Source of the DNA: Octopus sinensis
Lineage: Eukaryota
DNA: 64,000 nucleotides
NCBI RefSeq assembly: GCF_006345805.1
Contig: NC_043006.1
Location: 63,736,001 to 63,800,000, forward strand
Direction of reading: 5' to 3'
In this document: piece by piece, positions 5,401 to 39,420 of the stretch
Layout of the letters: each line of letters opens with the position of its first letter
Numbering within the stretch: the first letter of the stretch is position 1
Translations under genes and position numbers: made by a program
The notes under the pieces: model-generated
What the model was told of the DNA's origin: nothing
Seen by the model: the letters and a program-made list of their open reading frames with translations, nothing else
Database searches by the model: none

Positions 5401-8400
5401 AACTTCGCTCCGACTCCTACATTCATCTCCGTGACGGTTTTGCAACAAGAAAATGACCCTCGCAACATCGGCAAGCCATGCATTCTACTACTAACCTCCA
5501 CCTTCACGGAGAGGACCGCGATATATGCGTGAAAGGACCCAAGACGCCTTGGACCTACGTGCGCATTTACGGCCGGCCGGACCTCTTTATCACCGAACCC
5601 GTGCAATCCCAGCTGCGGCGACGAAATCACTCGCGAACTCCGCCCGGGTCAATCTCACCCCATCGACACGACATCGTTGCTTGGGTTTCCGTCTGAATTT
5701 GGGCAAAATGAGGATTTGATAGTTAAGGGTCAGATTTTCGGGCATGTCAGGTGCCACATGTTTTCGGTCGAGTGGCAAAAGAGGGGCTTGCCACATGCTC
5801 ACATCTTAATAATTTGGCTCACTCATAAAATCGAGACTAATGACATTTGAAAATTCATTTCCGCCGAGATTCCTGACCCCCCCGATGAGGACCCCGGACT
5901 CTACGAAATTGTCCGCACTACCATAGTACACGGGCCCTGTGGACGCAAATTACGCGTACCCACACACCATGCTACAAAACGGATTAGCCTGCTCAAAGGG
6001 ATTCCCTAAACGGTTCACTTTGGAGACTCAAACAGGGCGGCGATGGTATCCGCTGTACAAAACGAAGGAGTCCAGCCATGAGGCCGCACGATTACGGTTG
6101 GGGCGACATCAAGTGGACAACAGCTACATTGTCCCCTACTGTCCTCTCCGTCGAAGATATTCAAAGCCCACGTCAACGTGAGTTCTGCAGCTCCATCAGG
6201 TCAATACAATATGTCTGCAAATATATCAACAAAGGCAGCGATGCTGCCATGTTCAGCATCCAGAGGACCACCAGTCGCGACGAAGTGTCCAACTACTTGG
6301 CTGGCCGGTACCTCAGCAGCAACGAAGCGTTTTGGCGCATTTACGGCTTCCCGCTCCATCAGAGACACCCGGCTGTGGTGCAGCTTGCTGTACACTTGGA
6401 AAATGGACAGCGGATTTACTTCACAGAGCAAAGTGCTGTGCAGATAGCCACCAGCCCTAAAGACACAACGTTGACTGGTTTCTTCCAAATTATGCCAACG
6501 TGATGACTTCGCTCGAACGCTTTTGTACCTACAGGTCCCATCGTACTTCGTGTGGTCTAAAACAACCTGGGTTCGACGGAAATCCGGCAAAACGTCGAAA
6601 GCTTCCCAGGCGTCAAGTTGACTCCTGCCTGGGTCGAGTTTACAAACATCCCGCCAAACCAACAAGAATGCGTCTACCTCCGTCCCTTCTACATGAGGTC
6701 ACTGGTCCAACAGGTTTCGCCAATATACGTACCGTCAATGGGGTTTCTGTGCGACACCTTCAGGGAAGCATGTATGAGACTTGGCCTTCTAGAGGATGAC
6801 TCCCAGTGGGACGCCACGATGGCAGAGGGTGCTTTACTGCACCGCATTCGGCCCTACGAGACATCTTTTCGCAATCCTTCTTCAAAAATGTCAGCTTAGT
6901 GATCCACTAAGTCTCTGGATGAAATACAGGGATGACATGTCGCACGACTTCTTACGTACGGCTCAGCAACACCTCGGCTCTGCACCAGTACGTCCAAGAT
7001 AATGAACCACGGCTGCTTCCAGACCAGCGCATAGCCTACAACATCATCGTAGACTCTGTCAGACAGCAACGTGGGGGGATTTTTCTTCCTTGATGCCCCC
7101 GGCGGCACTGGCAAACCTTCGTCACTAAACTAATTCTGGCAGAGGTCAGACACAACAACGGACATTGCCCTGGCTGTAGCGTTCCTCTGGTATCGGGCCA
7201 CGTTGCTTCCGGGTGGCAGAACGCCCCACTCTGCCTTCAGACTCCCGCTCGATCTGGCAAAGTCGAGTCACCTATCTGCAACATCGCCAAGAACTCAGAA
7301 CAGGCCGACATTCTGCGCAGATGCAACTCATCGTATGGGACGAGTGCACTATGGCACACAAAGGCGCCCTTGGAGGCACTGGACAGGTCCCTGCAAACTC
7401 AGAGACTCTACGGCGCCCATGAGGATTACTTTACTTTCTTTCAGGAGACTTCAGGCAGACTCTACCGTTATTCCAAAAGGAACCCGTGCCGATGCCGTGC
7501 GCGCGTGCCTTAAGTCGTCAGCTCTTTGGGCAACATGTGCGGCCCTTGCACCTCCAAAACTAACATGTGCGCGCAGTTAATTGGTGACAGCGGATCCGCT
7601 GCATTCTCAGGACCTCTTAATCGCTCGGTGAAAAATAGGAGCTGTCTGATGCGGATGGCTACGTTCAATTGGACTCACTTTGCATTGCAATCACCATGTC
7701 GACACCCCTGCTAGCCTCCGGGAACGCCTGTCTTCCACGACCTACAAAACAATTTACGCGACCTAAAATGGCTGGCAGGCAGAGCTATTCTCTGCACCCA
7801 AAAATACAACCGTCAAATCCATCAATATCCAGCTACTTGAAGCTATTCCTGGTGATGTCCCGTCTACAAATCTATAGATAGGACAGCAGACCCCGCCCAG
7901 CTTGCTGATTATCCTGTTGAATTCCTGAATTCACTTGAACCGCCAGGCCTGCTACCACACATCCTGAAGTTAAAAGTCGGTGCGCCCATTATGCTCATCA
8001 GGAATTTGGTTCCACCTAAACAGTGCAACGGCACACGTTTGGTTGTGAAACATTTGGCACCACATTTTAATAACGGCCAACAACTTACCGGTTGTGGGAA
8101 GGGAGAGGACGTCTTCATTCCACGGATGCACCTTCAACGTCGGGGCGCGACCTACCAACCACCAATCCACTTCAGGCGTTCTCATTTTCCTGTTAAAAAC
8201 TCTGCTTCGCAATGTCCATCAATAAATCCCAAGGCCAAACGCTACAAGTGTCGCTGGGTTACATTTGGGCGAACAGTGCTTCGCCCACGGTCAACTCTAC
8301 GTGGGCTGTTCACGCGTTGGGAGGCGCAATGATGTTTTCATGTTTTCGCGCCCAACCGGACAGCTAGGAACATCGTATATACAGAAGTATTCCAGTGAAG

Positions 8401-22420: not shown

Positions 22421-23344
22421 GAACACAGAAATAAGCAGAGAGAGAAAATAACACGGGCGTGCATGCACACACAGTGTGGGGAGAGGAACTTTTATTTAAA
22501 ACATGTTGTCCTTCGTTCAACTGCTTTTTGGCCTAACCTTTGGACTGTTACTTTTGTTGCCATGCCCACTTCTAATTCTACCCGTTTCTGCTTCCGTTCG
22601 ATCTGATAGATCAGGGTTGAACAGATCTAAACAATGACTCTCTCCCTCTCTCGCTCTCTCTCTCACACACACACACACACACATACTCTCTCTCTCTCTC
22701 TCTCATACACATACTCTCTCTGCCACTCTCTCTCTCTCTGTCTTTCTCTCTCTCACTCACTCTCACACTCTCATACACACACTCTCACTCACACACACAC
22801 ACTCTCTCTCTCTCTCAAACTCTCATACACACACTTCTCTCTTTCTCTCTCTCCCTCCCTCCCTCCCTCCCTCTCTCTCCCTCTGTCTTTCTCTCTTACA
22901 CACACGCACACACACACACACACATACACACACATCGGGGTACCCTCTTGAACAAGAAGCAACCAACCTCTGGCCTGCAAACAAAACCTTGGTCATGCTC
23001 AAATTTGAACCACCCATACGAAGGGCAGAAAATACAATTTAAATTTCAACCCAAAAGACAGCAATTTTCGACATAAATTACTTATCACACTGCCATAACA
23101 TTAAACGAGATTCTGTGAGCCTTTAAGATCTTGTAACGTTAATCAGGAGTTGAACATGTACGAACTGAACGCATAACCGTCACACTTTTATTTATTTCTT
23201 TATTGCACACAAGGGGCTAAACAAGTCACGCTTTTATCGCTGACAATTAGCTTTTAACATCTGTTCCCCTACCCACGTCATACACACACACACACACACA
23301 TACAAGATCCAAGAATACGCACATTTGTTCTATTTTCTTGTGTA

Positions 23345-23992
23345 CTGTGCTATTAGTAAAGAAAGGCCACATTAGAGCTCACTGCCCTCTACAGAGGAAG
23401 ACGAAAGAAGAAGCGGTACTGGAGACGGAGGAGATAAAGGAAGAAGTACAGAGAGATGGAAGGAAGAAGTAAGATGAATGGCCAGTGACAGAGAATAAGG
23501 GGAAAAGGAGAAAGAAGAGCAAGGTCAGTGTGATGTGGGACCCCAGACAAACTCTATCGTACCCAACACCACTCAGACCCACCCTCCCCATACAGACACC
23601 AAACCCACCCACCCCCTCTCCCCACAGGAAAAATAAAGAAAGAAGAGACACCACAAAATTTGCAAGACCCCTCACCCGGTGAAAAAGGTTATGTGTACAT
23701 GGAGGAGAGAGTGTTGTCACTCAGTGATGGGGGAAACGGTAAACGAAAGATTAGATCAAAGACTAAAGAGGACTCAGGTCTCAGAGATGGCGAGTGGTGT
23801 TACTCAGTGTGGCGTGAGTAACACACTTTTCATATTCTCAAGTTATCATTCATGTAGCATTATTTTTATATTTTGATTTTATTGTTTTTCATGTTCATTT
23901 TCATGTGTCATTCATAGCATCATATTTTTATTTTATTATATGTCCCCACATGTGTTGTAGTGTCTCCCTCTATGTAATGCCTTTATGCCAAT
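23345..23992 (+). mobile_element. 5'-truncated, diverged copy of the ORF1-only retroposon family
   Basis: CY..KKGHIRAHCP knuckle remnant, then acidic/basic and Pro/Thr-rich segments, a hairpin at 23797-23824, a T-rich tract and a TATGTCCCCA...CCTTTATG tail, as in 29121-30737. Confidence 0.7.
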
Positions 23993-24749
23993 CCCACAGC
24001 GTCGCACCTTGGGCAAGTGACTTGACCCCGGCCTGACCAATGCTTTGTGAGCGGATTTGGTAGGCGGAAACGTGTGGAAGCTCGTCGTGTGTGTATGTGC
24101 TCATATCACCACCACTTAACAACTGGTGTTAGCTTGTTTACGCCCCCGTAACATAACAGTTCGGCAAAAGAACCCGAGAGAATAAGCACCAGACGGGGGA
24201 TTGATTTATCCGACAAAAATCTCTCAAGGCAGTGCCCCAGCATGGCCGCTGTTCAATGACTAAAGATAGACCTGAGATTAACCAACAACAGTAAAAGAAA
24301 AACAAAACACATTAGCCACCACAATACCAGACTGTTTTTCCCCTCTCCTCTTTGTGTCAGAGGGGTGGGCGCCACCGACGACAATTGGGGATTTCGAAAT
24401 ATTTAGGTATCCGTTTTTGTTTTTCTTTTCTTTCTCCATGTGTGTGTGTGGTGTGTGTGTGGTGTGTGTGTGGTGTGTGTGTGAATAAACCTTTCTTCTG
24501 GTGAAATTTCATCTCCGCAGTTTTAGCTTTTTAACAATACGAAACAAGAAAAATTTTCGAATTCTGAGCATTTCTGAAGACACACACACACACACACACA
24601 TTCCCCCACAAACCAAATTCAGTGTAATTTTTCTCAATTACTCGCTAATTTTATTTTCATTGTTTACGTGTATTTCTATACATAGATACAAATACATACA
24701 TATTGTGCACGTGGGTAACTCTGTATACATACACATATAACACACACAT

Positions 24750-24782
<33 letters not shown>

Positions 24783-24830
24783 CCACACACATTTATATGT
24801 ATATATATATATATATATACACACACACAT

Positions 24831-24868
<38 letters not shown>

Positions 24869-24894
24869 TATATATATATACACACATTTATATG

Positions 24895-24928
<34 letters not shown>

Positions 24929-25822
24929 TTTATATGTATATATATATATATATATACACACATTTATATGTATATATATATATATATATTATATATATAT
25001 ATATACACACACACAGCTGGTCTTTTACAGTGTTTTTCCTATCTTAGCTAACTCATAAAATGTTTCGGGTTACCCAAAAACTGACAGCCAACTATTGTCA
25101 TATTCAGGGTAGATGGGGTAGAGATCACCCACCTCCTCTTCCTCTCAACGCAATCGACATCTTGCCGGAGGGAGAAGGCGGGAGTGGAAGACTCTCTCGT
25201 CACCTCGCAGTAAACAAGAAATAAAATACTTTCCAAAAAGAAAAACAAAATCAAACATAACTGATGATATTTCTATTTAATGAAGTTCACAGAATTTGAT
25301 ACAATAACAGGCAATTAAAATTTACGTTGCCCTTCCTGATGGAGTCAGGGGAGCGCCGTCGTAACAATGTAGCGAGTCTTGCTTGCTTCTAAAGTCGATT
25401 TGGAAGAATTTGAACTCAGAATGTAAAAGAGGCCAGAAGATTCTGTTAGCTCCGCCACCCTTCTCTTCTGAATAAATCATTTGTTTTTAAATCTATTTTC
25501 CTTTGACTAATTTTTTGTTTATAAAATTATTTTCTACTCTAGGCACAAGGCAAGAAATTTTTTTGGTGGGGGGGGGGCAGTCGATTAGATCGACTCCAGT
25601 ACGCAACTGGTACTTAATTTATCCGAAAGGATGAAATGCAAAGTCGACCTCGTCGGAATTTGAATTCAGAACGTAAAAAAGCCCGGAAGAAATTCTGCTA
25701 AGCATGTTGTCCGGCGTGCTAACAATTCTGTTTGCTCACCACCCCTCTCTTCTGAATAAACCTTTTTTTTTTTTTATCTATCTTCCTTTGTCTAATTTTT
25801 TGCTCATAAAATTATTACCCAA

Positions 25823-26052
25823 GGCGGCGAGCTGGCAGAAACGTTAGCACAACGGGCCAAATGCCTAGCGGTATTTCGTCTGCCGCTACGTTCTGAGTTC
25901 AAATTCCGCCGAGGTCGACTTTGCCTTTCATCCCTTCGGGGTCGATAAATTAAGTACCAGTTACGCACTGGGGTCGATGTAATCGACTTAATACCTATGT
26001 CTGTCCTTGTTTGTCCCCACTGTGTTTAGCCTTCTGTGGGTAAGAAAGAAAT
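25823..26052 (+). mobile_element. intact SINE copy with target-site duplication
   Basis: TAAAATTATTACCCAAGG occurs at 25807-25824 and 26053-26070. Confidence 0.85.
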
Positions 26053-29000
26053 TAAAATTATTACCCAAGGTTGTTGTGTTCAAAAATCTATGAAAATGGA
26101 CTCAGTTTAATACACTATGGTGGCATTAGAGTCGGAGCTGCCCGCTTACTTGTGAATGAAAAGATCGACCATATCTGGAGCATTGAATCCTGGGTAATGT
26201 GTTGCCCCGCCTTCTTTTATCAAAGATCCCTGTTATTTCTGCTTTTCGTTTTATCTTAAAATACAGAGACCAGAACCCATGAATTTTTACAGAAGAGAAA
26301 GAAGACAACTTCAGATTAAGGGCCTATTCGCAATGTTGGTAACAGGAGTGATCCCACTAAAAGGTCTGCAGGGGTCAAGTGATGGGATTAAACTAAACGA
26401 CTTCTTACTTTTGGGCTTTATAAATATGTTTTAAGACATTTCCAGCCTTATCTCTAAAATAATTTGCAGGATGGCTAACGAGGGAGCCTCGATATGGTCG
26501 CTCGCTTCGTGAAAATATCAACCAAAGCATTCACATTACACTACCATCTTAAATGGAAAGTTGGATGATTTTGTCCTCGATATACTGTCTGAATGGTCAT
26601 GACTGGGCAGCTTTTGACCACAGGCCAGCTTAAGAGTGACCAACAGGCTGGGTTGGTCAAAACTGTACAACAATTACAGCAACCGAAGGTTCAGAATTTT
26701 AATTTTAGTTGAATAACGCCGTGCCCTAAAAGAAATTGTATTCTCACGGTCGGAGTGGATGAAAGAAGACGAACTGAATAAACCAAATAATTGTTTCAAA
26801 CGGTATAACTTGATTGATCCTTAAAAGGAAACGCAAAATAAAAAGAAAAAAAAAGAAAACGAGGTTTCGTTAATGACAATAAACAAGTAGCAACAATTTG
26901 TATTGTATATTGTTATAAACGTTTATCATGAGAAACCTCTTACTGCTCCAGAATCCAACAGAACTACTTTATTTTCCGCATATGAATAGTTTACTTTACC
27001 GTATTCATTTCTTTGTGTACCACTGGCAATAATATCGATCAGTACAGTCCATTATAGATTACTTATTTTATTGACCTCGAAAAGATAAAAGGCAGAGTCA
27101 GCCTCGACAGAATTTGAGCGGATGAAATGTCGCTAAGCATTTTGCCTGGCGTTCTTAACGATTCTGTCAGTTCGCCACCGTCACACCACGCTACAGTATT
27201 ATACATTATAAACATCAATTTTAGACAAAATAGCAACAAGCTCGTTAAGGAGACTTGAACTCGTGTCTATCGCTTGCCGCTTGAATTCAACAGTCGGTTG
27301 TTGAGCCTTCGCGATTTCCTCACCCCCGTTGGATTAGGTCTATCTTAAAATATAAATCTTGTTTAGAATTCATGTCTTTTATGTAACGGTGGGAAAATGA
27401 GAGGCAAGTATACAGCTACGCATTGGTTTGATCTTCGATCAACTCAAATGCTGTATTTCTTAAACTAATTATGATGTCATCGGATGTCTTATACCTGACC
27501 TTTTGTTTAGAAAATATTGTTTTCAAATTTTTGCACAAGGCCAGCAAGTTGATTACAAGGATTCCAGTGCTTGACTGATACTGGTTTTATCGACCCAGAA
27601 GGATGAAAGGCAAAGTCTACCACGGGAGGAATTTGAACTCAGTTTAGAAAATATTGAAAAATTTTAATTTGAATTCACCTGCTTGCAATCAGAAGTAACA
27701 AATGTAAAGGTTGATAATACACTTTCAATTCTCAGTCATCGCTCCGACGAACTTTGTCAGTTTTTTTTTAAACATGTCGCCTGCTTCTCTTCCCAAGTGC
27801 ATAATTTCTCTGTTGATCTTCTTGGTAGTCCTTTCCTTAAACTGCTACTCTCTAGATCCCATTACCATTGTCTTCTTTCCTCTCGTCTACGATGTTCAAT
27901 CCTTTAAATTTTCTTTCAATCGACACCTTTTGAACTCGTAGCCCGCCCCCCTTCTTTTCCTTCGTCATCCCTTACGCCACAGCGGCATCAAGCTTTGTTT
28001 GAGAGAAAAATCATTAAAACAAAAAAAAAAAAAAAAAAAAAAAAAAATTAACGTTTTTAATATAATCTTACAATCGTGTCTTTCCGAATGACTTGATCAG
28101 TTGAATCCTCTCACTTATAAGGTCTTCATATTCTGACATTTTAAAAAGTTCCAAGACTTAATTTTTAAAAAAATACACAGAATTTAATTGACATGATTTG
28201 CCGAGAATGTGACAAGCGATTTCAAAGATACATTCCGTTGATTAACAAAACAGGATTCCACTGAATTCCAGATTACATACAGAATTTTCTCTTTTTTTTT
28301 TTTTTGCGGGATCAAGGTCTCATAAGGGTGGCTATCCCCTTTCCATGGCATATAAGTGACCGAGATCATAATATTCCTTCTGAACGAACGCTGGTTCATT
28401 GCAAGAATAAAAACCAGTAACTTTTGAAGGGAGAAGGCACGTAGATTATTATATCGATCACTGTATTTCTTGACTGATACTTTATTGTATCGATCCTGAA
28501 TTGATGAATGGCATAACTGACTTCGGCGGGATTTGAACTCGTAACGTAAAGAGCCAGAAGAAATCTCACTAAATATTTTGTCCGACGTGCTAACGAGCCA
28601 GTCAGCTTGCCACTTCACATATTGTACACTGGATGGTGAATATAATGCTTGAACACTCGCATCGATCTTGAGATCCCATAAAAGGCGAAAATCATGTGAA
28701 ATCAAAACATTAAAATATTGTTTAAAGCCATAGCAAAGGATTTCTAACTCGGCTCCAAAATTAAATTTTTATGGGAAAATATTTTGAAATTATATTTATA
28801 CCATTTGATAAAAGGTTCGAATTTTATATCTTGCTGAAAAAAAAAAAAAAAAAAAAAAAAAAAGGTAGCTCCATGTTTATAGTCAAAATTCGATTTTAGT
28901 TTCAAAAAAGTTCGGAATATATTTTCCTAATATGCTTGAAACTTAATTTTCAAGACATTTTAGAAAATACAAAAAAAAAAAAAAAAAAAAAAAGATAACC

Positions 29001-29120
29001 ACCAGTATTTAACTTTTTTTCATGAGATGTTGCTGTGGAAAATTAATTATTATTCAATGTACGGTGGGGATAAGAGAATTATAAACCAAAGTCTTTAATA
29101 CATTCAACATAAGTTGCTCT

Positions 29121-30737
29121 CTTAGTTCCCCTTGTTCAGAGTTAATTCTTCCTAATTTTGTTGCTCCGTATGCATGTGTATTGCTTGCTCAGTTCCACTT
29201 TACAACTGTTTATTTGTTGAGTGTTAATTTTTGTTAAACATTTTGTTGCACGGTTTTTGTCTGTGTGTGTTGAGACAGACAAGGAAGAAGTGGACGGCCC
29301 CTCCCTACCGGGAGAGATGGCCAGACGAAGTATGTTCGAAAGTGTGTCGGATTTATCGACTTCTGAAGAAGAACTTGAAAAGGCGATAAAGAAAATGGAC
29401 AAGCAATTAGGCAACACATACGCAGGAGTGACAAGAACGGAGGAAAGAGAAATAGACTTGGCCAAGTTTCCAAGCTACCAGGCATTTATTAAAAAGGTCG
29501 GCGGTGAAGTGGAGTTGTCACTGCCACCAAAACGAAGAGAGTTGCATGAACGAAGGACCATCAAGTACCGAGTTTATGCCAATGGAAAATAGAAGTCGTC
29601 GGTATGGAAACAAAAGAAGAAGCATTAAAAAGAACGGAAGAAGACATAATATTCTTGGCAAGAGGCATAAATTTCGGTACAGTGGTGGTCCAATTCAAGA
29701 ATGAAAGTGTGGCGAGGAAAATGGCAGCGAGAACGGTGAAGACAGAAAAGGTGTTCCTTCTGCCCTCATATCTGGGTAGAAAAACTACTCGGATCAGTGT
29801 GGAGGGGATAGTGGCAGCCGTAATCAGTGGATGTAAGGAAGAAGTTGACATCCTCCATGCTACAGTGAAGGATGAAGGGGTGCAGTTTTGGAATTGAACG
29901 GGCAAGCGGAGGCTGAAATATTGGAACAATTGGCTGAGAATATCAGAATGGGAAGTGTTATTATGAGAGTGTGGTTGGAGGGAAGAGCTCCACGCTGCTA
30001 CAAGTGTGGCCTGAAAGGTCACTTAAGAGCTAACTGCCCTCCCCCATCAAAGGAAATTGATGCGGAACCTCAAAGAGAGGTAGTGGCCAAAGAGCAGATA
30101 TCAACGGAGAAAGACACAACGGAAGAGGAGGAGGTACAAAAGGAATGGGAAGAAGGCAGAAGGAGGAAGAGAAGAAGGAAAATAAATAGTGCTGAACCCC
30201 AATCCACCCCAACACCAGCCGCACCCTCTGAGACCCACCCTTCCCCTGCAGACAGTGAACCCACCCGCTCCCCACCAACAAGAAAACAAAAAAAAGAAGC
30301 AAACAGACAAGATACCGCAAAAAAACCTAGGCCCAATTTTCTAGGTATTTCGAGGAAAAAAGACGTAAAAGAAATATTGAAAGACTATCACTGGTGTGAC
30401 AAGGACAGTGATAGGTACGCTGTAATCTCGGAAGAACGTATAGAAGAATTCGTGGAAAAATGCAAAAAGAAAAACTATAAAGTGTTTAGATTTGAAATAG
30501 ATGAGATAATAACGGAAATGGAAAAGAGATTTGAGATGAAAATAGAGCACAATATGTATTACATTCAGGATAAAGTACGAAGGACACGTAAGTGATGCTA
30601 GCGGATGGGGCCGTTAGCATCACTTTCATTTTTCATTTTCGTATTTCAATTTCCATATTTATGTAATTGTGAGGTTTTATGTCCCCAATGTTTGTATTGT
30701 CCCCTCTGTGTAGCCCTTTATGGGTAATAAAGAAAAG
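29121..30737 (+). mobile_element. non-autonomous retroposon encoding only a gag-like/ORF1 CCHC protein (HAL1-like architecture)
   Basis: 14-bp TSD ACATAAG(T/C)TGCTCT at 29107-29120 and 30738-30751. The ORF runs 29317-30595 with two frameshifts and a CYKCGLKGHLRANC knuckle; AATAAA at 30726. No endonuclease or RT inside. Confidence 0.8.
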
Positions 30738-31401
30738 ACATAAGCTGCTCTGAGCTGCGTTAAAAAGAATGTGGCTACTACAACAGTGATGGTCGAAGCA
30801 TTCTGATGATCAGTTGAAAAGCATTGCTTTCAATCCCAGCTACAAGTCCATTGCACTGTCGAAGCGTATCATGGACAATTGCTGGAAGAGGAGTTTCACT
30901 GGGTTTTATCCGTGATTCCTCGCAGCAAATACCAAAACAATTTTTTGGTGAAAATGAAATGAATGAAGAAGAGTTATATATTTCAGCACCATGGTTGGAG
31001 AAGAGGAGCCTGCCACAGAAAGAGTATGTGAAACGTTGGAAGGATGTGATGAGAAAGGTGGGTGTTAGTAACCCAGCTTAATCATCAAAGAAAGGAAAAA
31101 TTAGTTGCTGGGCCTTATAGGCTGCCGGGTTCAAAATTCGGAACCTGCACTTCTCCCCCTTTTCATTTTAACATATGTTATGTTTTCTAATGTTACTAAA
31201 AAAAAAAAAAAAACGCACTAAAGTTCTCGTTATAAAGGCAAAAGTAAGCCAAGTTTTCGTTTATGTCATATTATAACTAAATTTTTAAGTTTCATTCGAA
31301 CTCTCATAACATTCTTTGTAATTGTTTGTCTTGTTATGTCCAAATTTATGTAAAATCGTATGATTATAATAAAGATTTTATCTTTCAGCACCATGACGTC
31401 A

Positions 31402-31988
31402 CCTACCGCAGTCACATCCGTCTCCTCGAGCGCTTCCACCAGCGATGTCTCCGCACCATCCTCAACATTCACTGGAGTGACTTCGTCACAAACATTGATG
31501 TTTTGGAGCAGGACGAGATCCCCAGCATTGAAGCCATGCTACTGAAGTACACCACCTCCGATAGGTAGGGTATGTCTCCAGAATGGAGAACCATCGCCTT
31601 CCTAACATTGCCCTGTTTGGCGAACTCTCCACCGCCCACCGTGAGAGAGGAACCCCGAGGAAACGCTACAAAAACTGCCTCAGAAAGTCTCTCACCGCAT
31701 GTCATGTTGACCACCAATGCTGGACAGACCTGGCTGCGGACCGTGATGCCTGGCGCCACACGATCTTCAACGCGATCAATGGGTGAAGAACACAGAAGAG
31801 AGGCGCATAAAGACAATAGACACAGGGGGAAGGCCCGAGCCGCTTCTGACACCACACCGGATGTTACCTTCATCTGTGGACACTGCTCACGAACCTGCCT
31901 TTCCCGCATCAGACTTGTCAGTCATGAGCGTGCATGCAGACGACGTGGACAACCTTCCTAATATTCGTTCGCAAAGCCAAACCATGGA
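31402..31988 (+). mobile_element. 5'-truncated RTE LINE
   Basis: LERFHQRCLRTILNIHW, RMENHRLPNIALFGEL, RGTPRKRYK and a C-terminal CGHCSRTCLSRIRLVSH finger. ATGACGTCA is duplicated at 31393-31401 and 31989-31997. Confidence 0.9.
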
Positions 31989-33479
31989 ATGACGTCATCG
32001 TCGTCGTTGCACGGAGAGTAGGGAGTGAGTGCTTTGAGGTTTTTTTTATCACGAAGTAAAAAAAACTTCAGGATACGGTCGTAGCTAGCAAGGTCACACT
32101 ATTTGAGGTATCTGACCGGCTGGAGGAAGAGGAGCTAGCTCAATGGATCTGCGAGTGGACGCAACCAATGAAGGTAAGAAAGAGGGTGAACAAAGTTCAA
32201 GGTAGGCCACACAAGCAAAAAAAAATGAATACAGCGTACAGACATGTTTTACGCACTTAAAGAATCTGCTGGGGCAACCCACCAGTCAGACAACAAAAAG
32301 ACATCAGCGCCACCATTGGACGACCACACAATTACTATAACTGAGCTGAAGTGAAGCAGGAGTTCGCAGATCCAAGGAATGAGCGCTGAATCTGACGAGA
32401 TGTCATCTGCAGATCTCGAGAACTGCAGCCTGGAGGACATCTTGCGAACCATCTGCGACACACCACAGAGGAAGAGAGCTAAGCAGGGAGCCGTGCTTTC
32501 TTTCGAGTAACTTGTGGTAGCAGTGAGACTTGGGGATCAAAGCTTTAAAATCGGATGATGTTCAATCGGATAAAGTTTGCCATTAACATCAAGCAACCAG
32601 AATTATTTCGCATCAGTCACTACAAATAGACAAAAATTCAATTTCTTTCATGACAGTTGATTGCAATGTACACATAACTGTGGGGGAGGAATGTGTTGGC
32701 ACAAGTTCAGATGTAGACCGATGTAATTTTTCTATGAGACATTTCATACATAGGTTTATTATAATTCTACAAAGAAATAGTGAGTCTAACCCACGTGCCT
32801 GTGGAAATTAAGAAAAGGTTTTCATCGCATGCAAGCACGAAAATAATGGTGTGGATGGCTACCCAGTAAGAGATGATGTCGAACTGTAAATTATGAAAAT
32901 ATATTCCCAACGGAAGTATCAAATTTTAAATTACCAATAATACAGATTTGTGTAGCTTGGTTCTCTTCTAACAGAGCAATGGTCTTCGTACAATATGGAA
33001 AAATACCTTCCAAATATTCAATAATTAGAAATACAGTTGTTAACCAATGGGACAACTTTACTGATGTCAATTTTCCTGTTGCCTGTACACGCAACAGGGA
33101 GATATTCGAGAACAGTTCTCGACCGGGGTCTATGATATCTCTGCTGAGTCCGCGCAAGCAAAATAGTAAATTGGGGGTCCACTAGAATTTTAAGGGTCCA
33201 TGAAAAAAATTTTGCTTTGGATGTATTTATTGCAAGAAGGGGGCTTCTGTTTTACACAGTTCAATAGGTTTTCAGTCAGTGAAATATATTCTCAAAAGGA
33301 AATCTTATTGCAGACCCACGCAAGTGAATGAGTGAAAAACTAAATAGGAATTTTGAAAGTATCTATAAAACAAGGTTTTAAGTGTCGAATAGCTGTGGGG
33401 TCCACCAGAATAAAATAGAAATCAAAGGGGCCCATTATTAAAAAATGATTGATAACAACTGGTCTAGAAAGAGTGATTC

Positions 33480-34400
33480 TACAAAGTCGGAAACCCTAAA
33501 ATGACGCTGGTCAGAAAATTATTTTCGGAGCAGTTTGTATTTATGGAGGTTGACCAACGAAGAGCGTTGAAGTTAATACCGGAACGAGACCGGGCTTTCT
33601 GTCATCCTTTTCCAGTTTGTCATTGAATGGATCACGAAGAAAACCTCACACAGTAAATAGACCAATCACAACTAGAGGAACAAGATTTTACCTTTCTTTT
33701 GGCATTGTTGTTTCACATTCAGTAGCAAATGCAGAAAATGGAGACGATTCTGGCCTACAACTTCGAAAGTTACAAAAAAAAAAAAAAATTGAATAATAAT
33801 ACTTCAGTTTTACACTGTCATCGCAGAACCAATTAGCCTTTACATTCCTAGGCAGCAGTATCGACAAAAAGATAGCCTCGTTGGATATGTAATGGTAAGA
33901 ATTGGCAAGGATATCAGCTTTTCCAGATATCTAACCTTCGCCAGAAAGATCAGACTACTCCAACATTAAAATCTTGCTTTTGGACTCGATTCTCTAGCAA
34001 GGCTATGGAGACTCTGATGATCTGAGCTTCCCTAATTACACTGCAATTTGTTGTAAGACGAGATCAGACATTCATGCCCTTATATCAAGAAAAGAAATCT
34101 CGCGCAACAAAATCGGAGTACGCTTGAATTCCAAGATGGATTAATGCCCTACAACTGAGCTGACCACGAATCGTTTTAGACTGTAGCGGATACCACAATC
34201 ACTTAAGCCTAATGGGATTCATAACGGGCTAAGAAACGGACAACATTGTATGTAGAGGGCTCGCCTAGAAGCACTCAATGACAAAAAGTTCCAGACAAAT
34301 ACAGAAATAGAATCCTTTACAGGCGTGATCCTAAGGCCGTTGAACAGTCTTTTGGACGTTAAAAGTGACCAATGAGCAGTTTGACGGGCATTATCTGAAC
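33480..34400 (+). mobile_element. heavily decayed RTE-like RT fragment
   Basis: Faint remnants resembling TG.RQG..S..LF, FTFLGS and YG.ET motifs; no open frame. Confidence 0.35.
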
Positions 34401-34896
34401 ACCCGGTGATGCCACCAATCAAGTCATCATCTCGGAAGCGGTTCACGAAAAGGAAAACAAAGTTCTTCCAAAACTAGTCAAGGCCTTGGGGGGAAAATGC
34501 TGCCCTAACAGTTGAAGTGAAGACACCGATGACAAAAAAAGAAGTGAGGCGTAACCGTCATTGTGTCCAGTCAAAAGATGTTTCAACCGATAAATGGTCT
34601 ACTTTAAGTTCAAATCCCACAGCAGGGATTGTTAATCCTGCCGATGCAAATTATGAAGAGTTGCTTCAACTGACTAAACACTCGACGTTATTTAGTTTTA
34701 TCTCCAGTCATGTTTAATCAAATAAGGTTGATCTTGCCAGTCAGTCACATTCGCCATAAAAGTTCAGTAAAGAAACCTTCAAAACAATAGAAAAACTCGA
34801 CGGTATTCTAATGGAGGTTCATCATCAACAAAAAGTTATGAGAGATTAAAGTATTTGTATATAGCGAAATGTATATTCTCATTCTTATTGTAAACA

Positions 34897-35271
34897 CTAG
34901 CAGTATCGCCCGGCGTTGCTCAGGTTTGTAAGGGAAATAACTATAAAGCATTTTTAGAGAGTTATAGCCAAAAAATGGAAAAAAAATGATGGTAAATTTT
35001 TTTTTTGAGAGTAATAAAAGGTTGAGTTGCGTCCCCTAGACAGTCTGTGGTTTGTTTTTTTTTTATTCTCGACCCCATGTCGAATTTATCGATTTTTTCA
35101 GACTGGGGGAACTTTTCAAAATTTTCGCTGCGTTAGTTTTGAATTATGACATTGGGCTATGTGTGTGTCAAGTTTCATCAAATCGGTTGAAAGCCGTGGT
35201 CAGGGTGAGGGTACGAGAAAACAGACACACAGAAACACGCACAGACAAACTGCCGTTTATATAGAGAGAGA
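34897..35271 (-). mobile_element. 375-bp non-autonomous Helitron related to the 2476-8525 element
   Basis: The reverse strand starts A|TCTCTCTCTATATAAACGGCAGTTTGTCTGTGCG, matches ~2476-2740, and ends GCAACGCCGGGCGATACTGCTAG|T. Confidence 0.92.
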
Positions 35272-36103
35272 TAACGGTGAGTTAAGTAATACATCATTAC
35301 ATATAATCTTAAATTAGAAACAAACAAAAAATGTACAGCAGAGGCGTTGCCATCTGAATAAATACATTATCACGAAAGTAGTCGTGATTGTTGAAGAAAA
35401 TTTACTAAAAACTGGAAAAAAAACTATTTTAAAATGTGTATTCGAGAATAAGGAAAAGAGAAAAACAACAACAGTTGGTCTCCAATTCTGGAATATAGCA
35501 GCGACACATTTTGTAAACGATTTTTTCAAATAGATTACCAGCTTCGTTTGAATGTTTGGAGTAGTTTAGGTCGGGAGGGATTTGAAAACTAATATTGACT
35601 CACCACCGTTTTTGAGATTTTTTTTTTGTAACTACGCCCTTTAAAATATTAAAGAGAGTATCTTTCTTTTTCCAGTTTAATTTACTACAGTTTTTAGAAT
35701 AAGTCTGACCAAATTGCTCGACTGAAGCACCACTTGAAATTACGATATACCAGCCATTAAAAAGAATTGCATCGCATCCATGGCACTCAACGAATGTTAG
35801 TTCTTTCAGTGTTGACACAGGAACCTGAAGTCAACTTTAATTCCATCCATATTATATTTCTTTCTGATAGAGAGGGAAGCTACAAGATGGCGGCGATACG
35901 TTAAACAAATTAATACTTGGCAGACATTTTCTTCTCACCTCGTTACTTTTTACATTTTTTTTTCTGTCCGTTTTAATAATAATACAATTATAACAATGAA
36001 GGAGGTTGGCACTTCAGAATTGAAAGCTGAAGAATCCACCCATCAAGCTCTTTCACAAATATATAATAATTTCTGTAATACGTCAAGAATATCGTCATCT
36101 CTG

Positions 36104-36481
36104 CTACTCATGATGGTCTTCCAAGAATGAGCTTCTTCTAGAAGATGCTGGACTGATAACTGGGAAATCTAATAGTCCGATTTTCTCTTCGGTTGGTCGA
36201 TTCGTGGATCTCTTCCCTTTGAACCAAAGACACAACGACAATATCACCATTGCACCGAAGAGAACACAAATGCTGACCAAATACAGAATATCCTTTTCGT
36301 GCACGTATATATTGGTCAGTTCGTGAAAACGTGGTACGAATACTTTCTTGTGATTTTGACCAGTTGACTGTATGTGGTCAACGATGTTAGCTGCCATCAC
36401 TGGGTTCGTCACAAGAGCGGTTGTGTTGTTCATGCTGTTGTTCTGCTCCTCTTTAACGCCGAACATAAAACCTTCATCCAT
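36104..36481 (-). CDS. candidate 125-aa single-pass membrane protein, unknown family
   Basis: Non-repetitive ORF with Kozak-like ggaATGg, N-terminal NxS/T sequons, a hydrophobic helix ILYLVSICVLFGAMVILSLCLWF followed by KGKR, and a Ser-rich tail. No family recognised. Confidence 0.45.
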   Translation of the reverse strand: MDEGFMFGVKEEQNNSMNNTTALVTNPVMAANIVDHIQSTGQNHKKVFVPRFHELTNIYVHEKDILYLVSICVLFGAMVILSLCLWFKGKRSTNRPTEEKIGLLDFPVISPASSRRSSFLEDHHE

Positions 36482-36604
36482 TCCAGATTTATTCGTAAAT
36501 TACTCACCGTTACTTCCGGTAAATAAATAGTAGCAGAGGTGGGTGTTGCAGAAGTGGTAGGAGTAGCCGTAGTGTTGTAGTTGTTGATGATGGTGGTGGT
36601 GGTG

Positions 36605-36638
<34 letters not shown>

Positions 36639-37729
36639 TAGTAGTAGCAGCAGTAGTAGTAGTAGTTGCTGATGATGATGATGGTTGTTGTTTTTTTATT
36701 CCCCACCCTCTCCGCAATAAAATTGTTTTCTGCCTCACGGTAAAATTCATTATCAAATTAAATAAAAACCAAAAATAAAGGAAATGAGTTCGATCCCGCC
36801 TGTTGTTACGTCAACATTTTGTTTTACATAACCTTTCGACATTTGTGTGACTAAAGAGGGAGCGATCTGCCCCGGGCGACGCTTTTATAGAAACGGCATT
36901 TCAGGGCTTGCTGTATAAATCTGTATAGGGATTAAGGGCTTTGGGTGAGAAACGCAACAACCTCAGGGGCTGCCCTGAGCGGCATACATCCTAGTTACGC
37001 CATCACCTTCCGTACTATGTGTATTGCAGATGATAAAGAGCCAAACTTTGAGATATTGATTTCAAATTTTGGCAGAAGGCCAGCAGTTTCGCGGGAGGGG
37101 ACAAGTAATTGACATCAACCCCACTGCTGTACTGGTACTTATCTCAATGACCCCGAAATGATGAAGGGCAAAGTCGACCTCGGTAGAATTTGAACACTGA
37201 ACGTAAAGACGGACAAAATTCCTATTTCTTTACTACCCACAAGGGGCTAAACACAGAGAAGACAAACAAGGACAGATAAACAGATTAAGTCGACCCAGTG
37301 CATAACTGGTACTTAATTTATCAACCTCGAAAGGATGAAAGGCAAAGTCGACCTCGGCGGAATTTGAACTCAGAACGTAACGGCAGACGAAATTCCGCTA
37401 AGCATTTTTGCCCGACGTGCAAACGTTTCTGCCAGCTCGCCACCTGGGGAATTTTTTTTTTTTTTTTACGAAATCACCCGTTGTCCTTCGATGATTTCGA
37501 TCTGTCTGTCGGTCGACGGAGAAACTAAAAAAGTGTATCGAAAAAAAACCACTTGACCGCACCGCACCTATCCACACCAATACTCTTTAGAAGATAAAAG
37601 AGAAACTGGATGTTGTTACTTTTATGCCTTTCCCTGGCTGAGACTGAAACCATTATGGTCTTCAGATTATTCAGTCAGAACGGACGACGAAAGCGGACGA
37701 AATAAACCAAATAACTGTTGATGTAGATT

Positions 37730-38200
37730 AAATTCTTTATTCGGCACAAAGGCCTAAAACACAGAGGGAACGGTACAAGGACAGACAGAGAGGGTACACG
37801 TAGGGTCATGAAATATAAAAACGATGAATGAAATGAATATATGTACAAAATGAGGATGAACGCCATTGCCTGAGCCCCATCCTCAAGCAATTACGTTTTT
37901 ACTGTTCGTTGTCTATTAAATCATTACATCAATTTTACTTACCCTACTAAATAAAGGTTCCAATTCTTTATATTCTACCACCGGGGGTACGGTTTCAAAC
38001 TTCGCCTCTCTCCCCAGTGGGCCTATATCAGATTTGTAACATTTTGTTAATGTTTCGTATTTTAGTTTATCAATCAAAATGCACTTTATTTCAGCTGAGT
38101 AGATTTTAGAAAGTTTCACTCTGGTGATATTTCAAAACATTTTGATTGTTTTCTCTATAGATTTACTGCTTCTGTTAACTCATTATGCCGTTTGAATTGT
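37730..38200 (-). mobile_element. 3' remnant of a third ORF1-only-family copy
   Basis: Reverse strand: hairpin ATTGCTTGAG-GATGGGG-CTCAGGCAAT, a T-rich tract, then an CCCTCTGTGTTTTAGGCCTTTGTGCCGAATAAAGAA tail. Confidence 0.55.
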
Positions 38201-38559
38201 CGGGGTTTCACCGTGTTGTGTGTCTGCTTTTAACGTAGAATGATCCTCAGAAAGAAACGCAAAGTAAAAGACACTTGTTTACTGTAAACAAGTAACAAGT
38301 AACAACAATTTAAGTTTGTGTTGCATATTGTTGTACGTGCTTTTCTCTTCAGAAACATAAAATTAACTAAACATAACTCATGCAGACATCAAAAATGAAC
38401 GTGTCACAGACTAAAACATCTTTTTCTAGTTACTTTAGCTATCTACGTATTGGTCCTTTACTTGTTTCAGTCATTTGACTGCGGCCATGCTGGAGTACCG
38501 CCTTTAGTCGAACAAATCGCTGTATATTTTCCTTTCCTTTCTGCTTTCGCGATAATAAG

Positions 38560-39420
38560 CTGTAGCGAGCCATTATCAGGTTGTAAGACTGGTGAGATGT
38601 TAGAGGAGGTGAGTGTTTTTAAGAATCTGGGATCACATGTGACGGCGGATGAGAGGCGGGGTTGGCCGAGGAAGTAGGGATATAGAGTGAGGGAAGGGAA
38701 TAAGATAATTGGAGTTGTGAAAGTTAGGCTGAGAGATAAAAGATTGAGTATGAAAGCGAAAAGAGGTGTGTATGAGGGCTTGGTTGTGCCGACAATGTTA
38801 TATGGTACAGAGACGTGGGGTCTGAGAGAGGCAGAAAGGAGGCGACTAGATGTGTTTGAGATGAGATGTTTGAGGGCTGTGGTTGGTGTGACACGGAAGG
38901 ACAGGATGAAGAATAAAGAGGTGCGAAGGCGAGCAAGAATGAGAGAAAAACTAACCAAAATGGGTAGACGAATGTTGAGGTGGTTTGGCCACACGGAGAG
39001 AATGGATGAGGAGCGGATGGTGAGGAGGGTGATGAGGACAAAAGTGGTAGGCAGCAGAACCAGAGACAGACCTCAGTTTGTGTGGATGGATGGAGTGAGG
39101 AAAGCTTTGGTGGTTAGAAGTGTTGGAGTGAGAGAAGCAAGAGTTTATAAATGAGAGCTTGGAGAGTGTGTGGATGGATAGGTGAATTTGATGTTGCTCA
39201 AAGGGATACGGAACCAGCATGATGCGGTGGCGGGGGGTGGGGTAGTAAACAAGCATGTCAGGCCTCGCTGCTGATATTGGGGTTTGCGTTCTATGCCTTG
39301 ACCCAAGCATAAGACGGGACTCGCCTCTTTGAGCTGGGAAATGAATGGAATGCCTGGTATGTCTTGTTGTGACTACCCCGCTCCTAAAAGATTTGGGAAT
39401 AGGCCTGGGTATATAAGAAT
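38560..39420 (+). mobile_element. 5'-truncated RTE LINE
   Basis: FKNLGS, LYGTETW, FEMRCLR, LRWFGHTERM, RDRP...WMDGV. Confidence 0.9.

Follow-up and report, generated by a model that had tools for sequence, protein, structure and literature searches.

A guanine-loop hairpin in ORF1-only retroelements of Octopus sinensis: support for selection as RNA and a putative role in ORF1 protein loading

A 64,000-nucleotide (nt) stretch of the Octopus sinensis genome (NCBI RefSeq assembly GCF_006345805.1, contig NC_043006.1, positions 63,736,001 to 63,800,000 of the forward strand), here called the window, carries three hairpins near the 3′ ends of three retroelements that encode a single open reading frame (ORF), ORF1. 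Our analysis supports the conclusion that all three represent a single, homologous RNA stem-loop, referred to below as H1, for which selection acts on the sense strand. H1 recurs in about 30 families, autonomous ones among them, combines a variable stem with an RUGGGG loop, and is located in the 3′ untranslated region, shortly 3′ of the last stop codon and 130 to 200 nt before the end of the element. The window copies, in coordinates of the window, are the following:

30590..30625, plus strand: H1 of copy A, 15-bp stem, ATGGGG loop
23797..23824, plus strand: H1 of copy B, 10-bp inner stem, loop GTGTGGCG here and GTGTGGGG in most relatives
37865..37891, minus strand: H1 of copy C, 10-bp inner stem, GATGGGG loop, and a short outer helix
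30578..30580, plus strand: place of the family-A stop codon, CGA in copy A, where the frame continues to a TGA within the stem

The stems, loops, G-U pairs, U-rich tracts, and tails that the original prediction had described were all confirmed at these positions in the three copies. Short windows around copies A, B, and C, picked after the fact, fold into the expected hairpins with z scores of −6.7, −3.5, and −5.8, respectively; in 146-nt windows, the scores are only −2.3, −1.6, and −0.55, and copy C then favors another fold. On both strands of the 64 kb, a scan detected about 11 separate hairpins with stems of 10 bp or longer (at most one G-U pair, loop of 4 to 8 nt, simple repeats filtered), and a loop with no fewer than four G occurs only in the three H1 copies. 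A search of positions 23,000 to 39,000 with Rfam models at E values up to 1 yielded 14 hits, all to microsatellites, and no match at the three hairpins; the 2.7-Gb host genome is rich in microsatellites. As a separate observation, the loop of copy C and of C-group loci can pair with the segment directly 3′ of the stem (37880-37850, minus strand), forming an alternative fold or a pseudoknot that is favored in some C families. Possible pairing of the loop with a YYCAY motif after the stem, as a pseudoknot or a switch, was spotted by eye in several families.

Two features of the original description hold in part. The ORF was thought to end inside the stem, which is true of copy A but is a read-through peculiar to it and not a trait of its family: at the site matching 30578-30580, 9 nt upstream of the stem, a TGA or TAA stop is found in 21 of 30 family-A loci. 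The stems were also said to differ in sequence, and they do between families; within family A, however, the stem is 97% identical among seven divergent elements, compared to 65 to 89% in parts of the ORF. Since the stem is so well conserved within the lineage, its sequence turnover is seen between families only.

The pairing was assessed on 213 element ends that a tail profile detected in the loci examined and that form 65 clusters. After removal of 24 clusters (copies of short interspersed elements, or SINEs; duplicates; short or false hits), 41 were kept, and 35 of these have a match of at least five of six positions to RTGGGG at 100 to 215 nt from the end, a count given without a null. When stem arms were swapped among 35 clusters, cognate arms gave a mean of −12.2 kcal/mol versus −5.9 kcal/mol for noncognate ones (0 of 20,000 permutations). 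Five doubtful anchors were dropped and the remaining 30 clusters were pooled into eight related groups, for which the true pairing was the best of all 40,320 permutations. A control for composition gave −13.1 versus −5.4, and 20 of the 30 clusters were at or below 10 of 200 shuffles (5%). In a plain MAFFT alignment of 22 sequences, in which several rows are out of register and for which the shuffle control ignores kinship, three of five H1 measures beat all 500 shuffles.

Within the lineage of copy A, which offers the clearest test, a search pattern that left nine 5′-arm bases and the outer 3′ arm unconstrained gave 191 matches. We compared 58 distinct copies, taken from the first 30 loci and from 20 further regions picked mainly to include less common 5′ arms. 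Of 33 stem haplotypes, the 29 that show no register shift contain 66 G-U and 4 A-C pairs, although these haplotypes are related and the counts are not independent events. Five two-sided stem changes, three of them recurrent, proceeded through G-U intermediates, and two recurrent mismatches are located near the loop. Because G-U pairs so outnumber A-C pairs, selection appears to act on the sense RNA and not on a DNA palindrome. Together with homology, arm swaps, and shuffles, this strand asymmetry supports the earlier proposal of a selected RNA element.

ORF1-only elements and their autonomous partners

The hairpins belong to elements without long terminal repeats (non-LTR elements), delimited in the window as follows:

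29206..30734, plus strand: copy A, near full-length ORF1-only element of ~1.55 kb, 5′ end approximate
29317..30595, plus strand: ORF1 of copy A, split into three pieces in different frames
23361..23991, plus strand: copy B, 5′-truncated ORF1-only element of a second family, last bases lost
37733..38084, minus strand: copy C, 3′ end of a third ORF1-only family, comprising the ORF1 tail and 3′ untranslated region (UTR)
30880..31375, plus strand: 3′ fragment of an autonomous L1/Tx1-group element with the end of ORF2, stop codon at 31079-31081, 5′ limit approximate

Copy A has neither ORF2 nor poly(A). Its ORF1 contains an RRM-like core, one CCHC knuckle (about 29993-30040), and a low-complexity linker. 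It is colinear over the full 1.55 kb with ~20 of 30 family loci at 70 to 91% identity. Copy B is adjoined from 23993 by the 3′ part of a tRNA-like SINE, the insertion target of its family; copy C is 5′-truncated, with an approximate 5′ limit. Full-length relatives are flanked by target-site duplications of 10 to 46 bp, measure about 1.6 kb (A) or 1.45 kb (B) between them, end at AATAAAGAA, and have no poly(A). No target-site duplications were found around the three window copies. A 638–amino acid ORF2 query had no match in the 30 loci of the family-C search.

ORF1 proteins of families A, B, and C are 30 to 39% identical, which bears out the homology of the three loci. In a tree of 52 ORF1 pieces, whose bootstrap is not fully settled, the ORF1-only families form two supported clades, A+B+E and C+D (100/99 each); one row, L172, probably represents an autonomous copy that was truncated and is followed by the tail of a SINE. 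The ratio of nonsynonymous to synonymous substitution rates (dN/dS) in ORF1 is 0.10 to 0.13 in all four pairs of A subfamilies, 0.39 between two B subfamilies, and 0.56 to 0.69 between copies of one subfamily. ORF1 is thus under purifying selection. Since their ORF1 is homologous to that of an autonomous LINE (long interspersed element), and since they have target-site duplications and purifying selection but no ORF2, the A, B, and C families are long-lived HAL1-like elements. HAL1 in the strict, mammalian sense was ruled out: Pfam searches with ORF1 matched zf-CCHC and not Transposase_22, the type II ORF1 protein. The named relatives of the protein are two only, both from Octopus species, and a search for longer fused ORF1 proteins found none, which is weak evidence.

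Autonomous ORF1+ORF2 elements of this genome begin with an ORF1 of the same type, and the 3′ UTR plan is common to both kinds. ORF2 is most similar in the Protein Data Bank to human L1 ORF2p (E = 3e-66, compared to 4e-23 for R2), its relatives carry PF00078, PF03372, and PF13966, and a first look at the genome gave ~13,000 candidates. The predicted set of apurinic/apyrimidinic endonuclease (APE), reverse transcriptase (RT), and zf-RVT domains, together with the similarity to L1 ORF2p, places the autonomous partner in the L1/Tx1 group. The ORF1-only elements derive from such a LINE, which is abundant in this genome. H1 is also present in autonomous families (clusters 4, 6, 9, 31, 34, 51, and 60). 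The fragment at 31 kb has the terminal hairpin described below (about 31354-31365) and AATAAA, without an RUGGGG-loop H1.

The terminal hairpin H2 and readings of H1 function

A second hairpin, H2, had been overlooked in the original prediction. It consists of a 4-bp stem directly before AATAAA, whose pairs switch between families, and is also present in tRNA-like SINEs of the window:

30713..30734, plus strand: H2 of copy A and AATAAAGAA end, with the 4-bp stem and TTTAT loop at 30713-30725
23978..23990, plus strand: H2 of copy B, with one disruptive change
37733..37754, minus strand: H2 of copy C and AATAAAGAA end, with H2 at 37754-37743
25823..26050, plus strand: tRNA-like SINE with H2 and without H1, ending in the same ~55-nt tail
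37226..37443, minus strand: second copy of the tRNA-like SINE, same tail

In 36 sequences, 81% of cells are paired in H2, compared to 63% after shuffling and 27 to 49% after sliding, and 23 cells are two-sided. Swapping of arms among 39 of 43 tails, those that could be anchored, gave 3.4 pairs for true versus 2.2 for exchanged arms (0 of 20,000 permutations). In LINEs, ORF1-only elements, and the SINE alike, H2 shows covariation; the SINE is abundant in this genome. Measured from the end, the SINE resembles the LINE tails over a median of 54 nt and a maximum of 69 nt (the 27 of 41 clusters that matched). This shared tail spans H2 and not H1, and the SINE's own TGGGG is mostly paired. One and the same position of this SINE, a second one besides the target of family B, follows at least six of eight copies of autonomous cluster 6, which has H1, and 4 of 12 copies of the SINE itself; the common target position hints at shared machinery.

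By the rule that SINEs share their tail with a partner LINE (PMC4176376, PMC3472496, PMC3747384, PMC5135761), H2 and its flanks are likely the RT signal. Through the common tail, an abundant SINE of this genome can also be linked to its likely LINE group. The suggestion that H1 itself serves in RT recognition is weakened accordingly: H1 is missing from the SINE with the same tail, covariation is seen in a separate hairpin at the terminus, and H1 is not clearly present in one autonomous lineage.

We tentatively favor the reading that H1 is a putative loading site for the CCHC ORF1 protein (ORF1p) of the element, while a borrowed RT reads H2 at the end. ORF1p, once translated, would bind the exposed guanines of H1 in cis and package the RNA. 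ORF2p supplied by an autonomous partner would bind the last ~55 nt, comprising a pyrimidine tract, H2, and AATAAAGAA, and target-primed reverse transcription would start at this terminal segment. Loading of ORF1p is favored because zinc knuckles of retroviruses bind exposed guanosines of hairpin loops (PMC7599994) and the CCHC knuckles of SART1 package the mRNA of that element (PMC4120745). Stringent LINEs, for their part, have a terminal stem-loop in common with SINEs (PMC4176376, PMC5135761). With the RT signal assigned to H2 and its flanks, the role of H1 would be tied to protein-coding elements, and such a split would explain why H1 occurs in ORF1-coding elements and not in the SINE.

A wider version of this idea is possible, if doubtful: L1/Tx1-group elements of this clade may have two separable 3′ UTR signals, a psi-like guanine-loop hairpin that loads a Gag-like ORF1p in cis and a terminal hairpin for the RT. 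LINE, half element, and SINE would then be a natural deletion series that displays the split and explains why ORF1 is retained. This touches on two open questions, how LINE ORF1 proteins select their own RNA and why ORF1-only elements keep the protein, and it concerns a non-mammalian case of long-lived half-L1-like lineages. A 36-nt hairpin that has many natural variants and strong support from evolution, a candidate protein, and an H1-free SINE make it directly testable in vitro.

Alternatively, H1 may be the upstream half of a two-part ORF2p signal, providing affinity or cis-preference while H2 positions initiation, with the SINE managing on H2 by the number of its transcripts. The occurrence of H1 in autonomous families agrees with this, as does the reading of a general stem and a specific loop by L2 ORF2p (PMC4176376), which matches the variable stem and fixed loop of H1. 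Binding by the R2 protein requires two stem-loops, so an upstream hairpin can serve an RT (PMC11194090), a precedent that also counts against ORF1p loading. Yet the SINE does without H1, a U-rich spacer of 46 to 128 nt separates H1 from the end, and the autonomous lineage mentioned above has no clear H1; we regard a two-part signal as rather unlikely.

A role in host handling of the RNA polymerase II (Pol II) transcript is unlikely. In that case, a host factor or U1 would act at H1 on polyadenylation at AATAAA, stability, or export, and an RNA polymerase III–transcribed SINE would have no need of H1. It would fit the confinement of H1 to protein-coding, Pol II–type elements, inserts that stop 3 nt past AATAAA without poly(A), the perfect (9/9) donor-like 9-mer that lineage A retains at the base of H1, and a GT near the base in many families. 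However, donor-like scores near H1 in the 30 clusters average 5.4, compared to 5.1 upstream and 4.9 in shuffled sequence, scores of at least 7/9 are reached in four versus three clusters, a candidate acceptor AG is missing from most A subfamilies, and YCAY motifs are only mildly enriched (168 versus 139 expected). The donor-like 9-mer at 30584-30592, also seen in A-lineage loci, is partly unpaired at the H1 base and has one change in the window copy. A U1 or splice-donor role as a general feature of H1 was rejected, the scores being barely above controls, as was an intron from the donor-like site to an AG near the end, which is not kept across A subfamilies. Among the joints listed for four contig sets, which are presumed to be RNA or whose type is uncertain, none falls at this place; such contigs show presence only. 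A search for expression listed no RNA set with these sequences.

Several further observations weigh against selection on H1 or against its reading as an ORF1p loading site. Ten of the 30 clusters fail to beat their own shuffled arms at 5%, and two of the five MAFFT measures show no gain over shuffles (117 and 270 of 500). When all 30 clusters are counted, many of which consist of one decayed copy, G-U and A-C pairs are balanced (15 versus 16), and the strand asymmetry is demonstrated in the A lineage only. The loop of some C families can instead pair with the downstream segment. The autonomous lineage without a clear RUGGGG-loop H1 (clusters 2, 8, and 49 and the fragment at 31 kb) still encodes a CCHC ORF1 (L114) and has H2. 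The RRM assignment is weak (best E value, 0.009), and the SINE argument draws on a single SINE family without an established LINE partner.

The balanced G-U and A-C counts and the failure of some single-copy clusters against shuffles would also be expected if the stems were unselected DNA quasi-palindromes matched by template-switch correction, or chance folds in G-rich and U-rich sequence, but this is very improbable and already largely refuted for lineage A, where G-U pairs predominate and wobbles are long-lived although DNA correction would erase them, perfecting changes are no commoner than others in 30 copies (one on each side of a wobble), and, across families, loop sequence and position are kept.

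Insertion targets and neighboring features

Nearly all of 30 family-B loci are adjoined 3′ by the same SINE position. Family B (L032-L060; in the window, from 23993 onward) is found at one position of its target, a tRNA-like SINE, with a ~14-bp duplication, and loci L037, L054, and L056 have private changes common to both duplicated halves, which suggests independent targeted insertions. Most 5′-truncated B copies are without the SINE 5′ part, which fits composite movement too. About 15 family-A copies (L002-L017 and L020) have the same flanks on both sides and one 13- to 16-bp duplication. Their shared 3′ flank extends for ~270 bp and terminates in a CTAG-containing palindrome, which we take to resemble the end of a rolling-circle transposon; it seems that one family-A insertion was amplified as cargo.

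ATCA, presumably an initiator-like word, occurs within 9 nt after 27 of 56 A-lineage ends (background, 2%), and insertion may therefore favor the 5′ ends of related elements. Head-to-tail arrays of ORF1-only and autonomous elements were seen at L122, L125, L126, L129, L132, L260, L263, and L268. The same ~230-bp repeat follows most copies of one autonomous family (downstream flanks of L094-L120), a further target preference. Elsewhere in the window are two other features:

7856..8332: fragment matching the Pif1 helicase 2B domain (E = 5e-15), probably part of a Helitron
38467..39072, minus strand: 201-codon open frame without a Pfam hit, probably the reverse strand of a further LINE fragment

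Relation to known systems

ORF1-only elements and stringent 3′ stem-loops are both already known kinds. Searches of open full texts did not yield the two-hairpin plan with its series of LINE, half element, and SINE, nor cephalopod ORF1-only Tx1-like elements, nor H1; the families may be named in Repbase, Dfam, or supplements. Passages of a recent octopus repeat annotation list L1-Tx1 families without two-hairpin detail (PMC13282606).

HAL1 of mammals is a non-autonomous L1-group derivative of several origins that encodes ORF1p only and has long been kept coding (PMC5753468, PMC3627910). The octopus elements are likewise ORF1p-only derivatives of an L1-group LINE with coding retained. Unlike HAL1, whose protein consists of a coiled coil, an RRM, and a C-terminal domain, they encode a type I ORF1 with a CCHC knuckle and an RRM-like core, have no poly(A), share a structured tail with the partner LINE, and likely have an octopus as host.

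Stringent LINEs (UnaL2, ZfL2-1/2, SART1, and a monocot L1 lineage) have a hairpin near the 3′ end with a variable stem, a fixed loop, and compensatory changes, which is shared with SINEs (PMC3472496, PMC3747384, PMC5135761, PMC4176376). H2 corresponds to it as a covarying terminal stem-loop in a tail common to the SINE. H1, in contrast, is a second, longer hairpin 130 to 200 nt upstream that is missing from the SINE.

The Tx1 subgroup combines an ORF2 of APE, RT, and zf-RVT domains with an RRM/CCHC ORF1, repeated targets, and tandem insertion (PMC4494074, PMC5203782). The octopus LINEs, as candidate members, share these ORF2 and ORF1 domains, the target preference, and tandem insertion. Their targets differ from those described for Tx1: tRNA-like SINEs serve as sites, as may the 5′ ends of related elements.

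The octopus elements bear a likeness that is functional only to HeT-A and to retroviral psi hairpins, which here lies in the predicted contact between knuckle and loop. HeT-A is a gag-only non-LTR element found in head-to-tail arrays. Unlike HeT-A and retroviruses, the octopus elements are dispersed on many contigs and are derived from the L1/Tx1 group, not viral.

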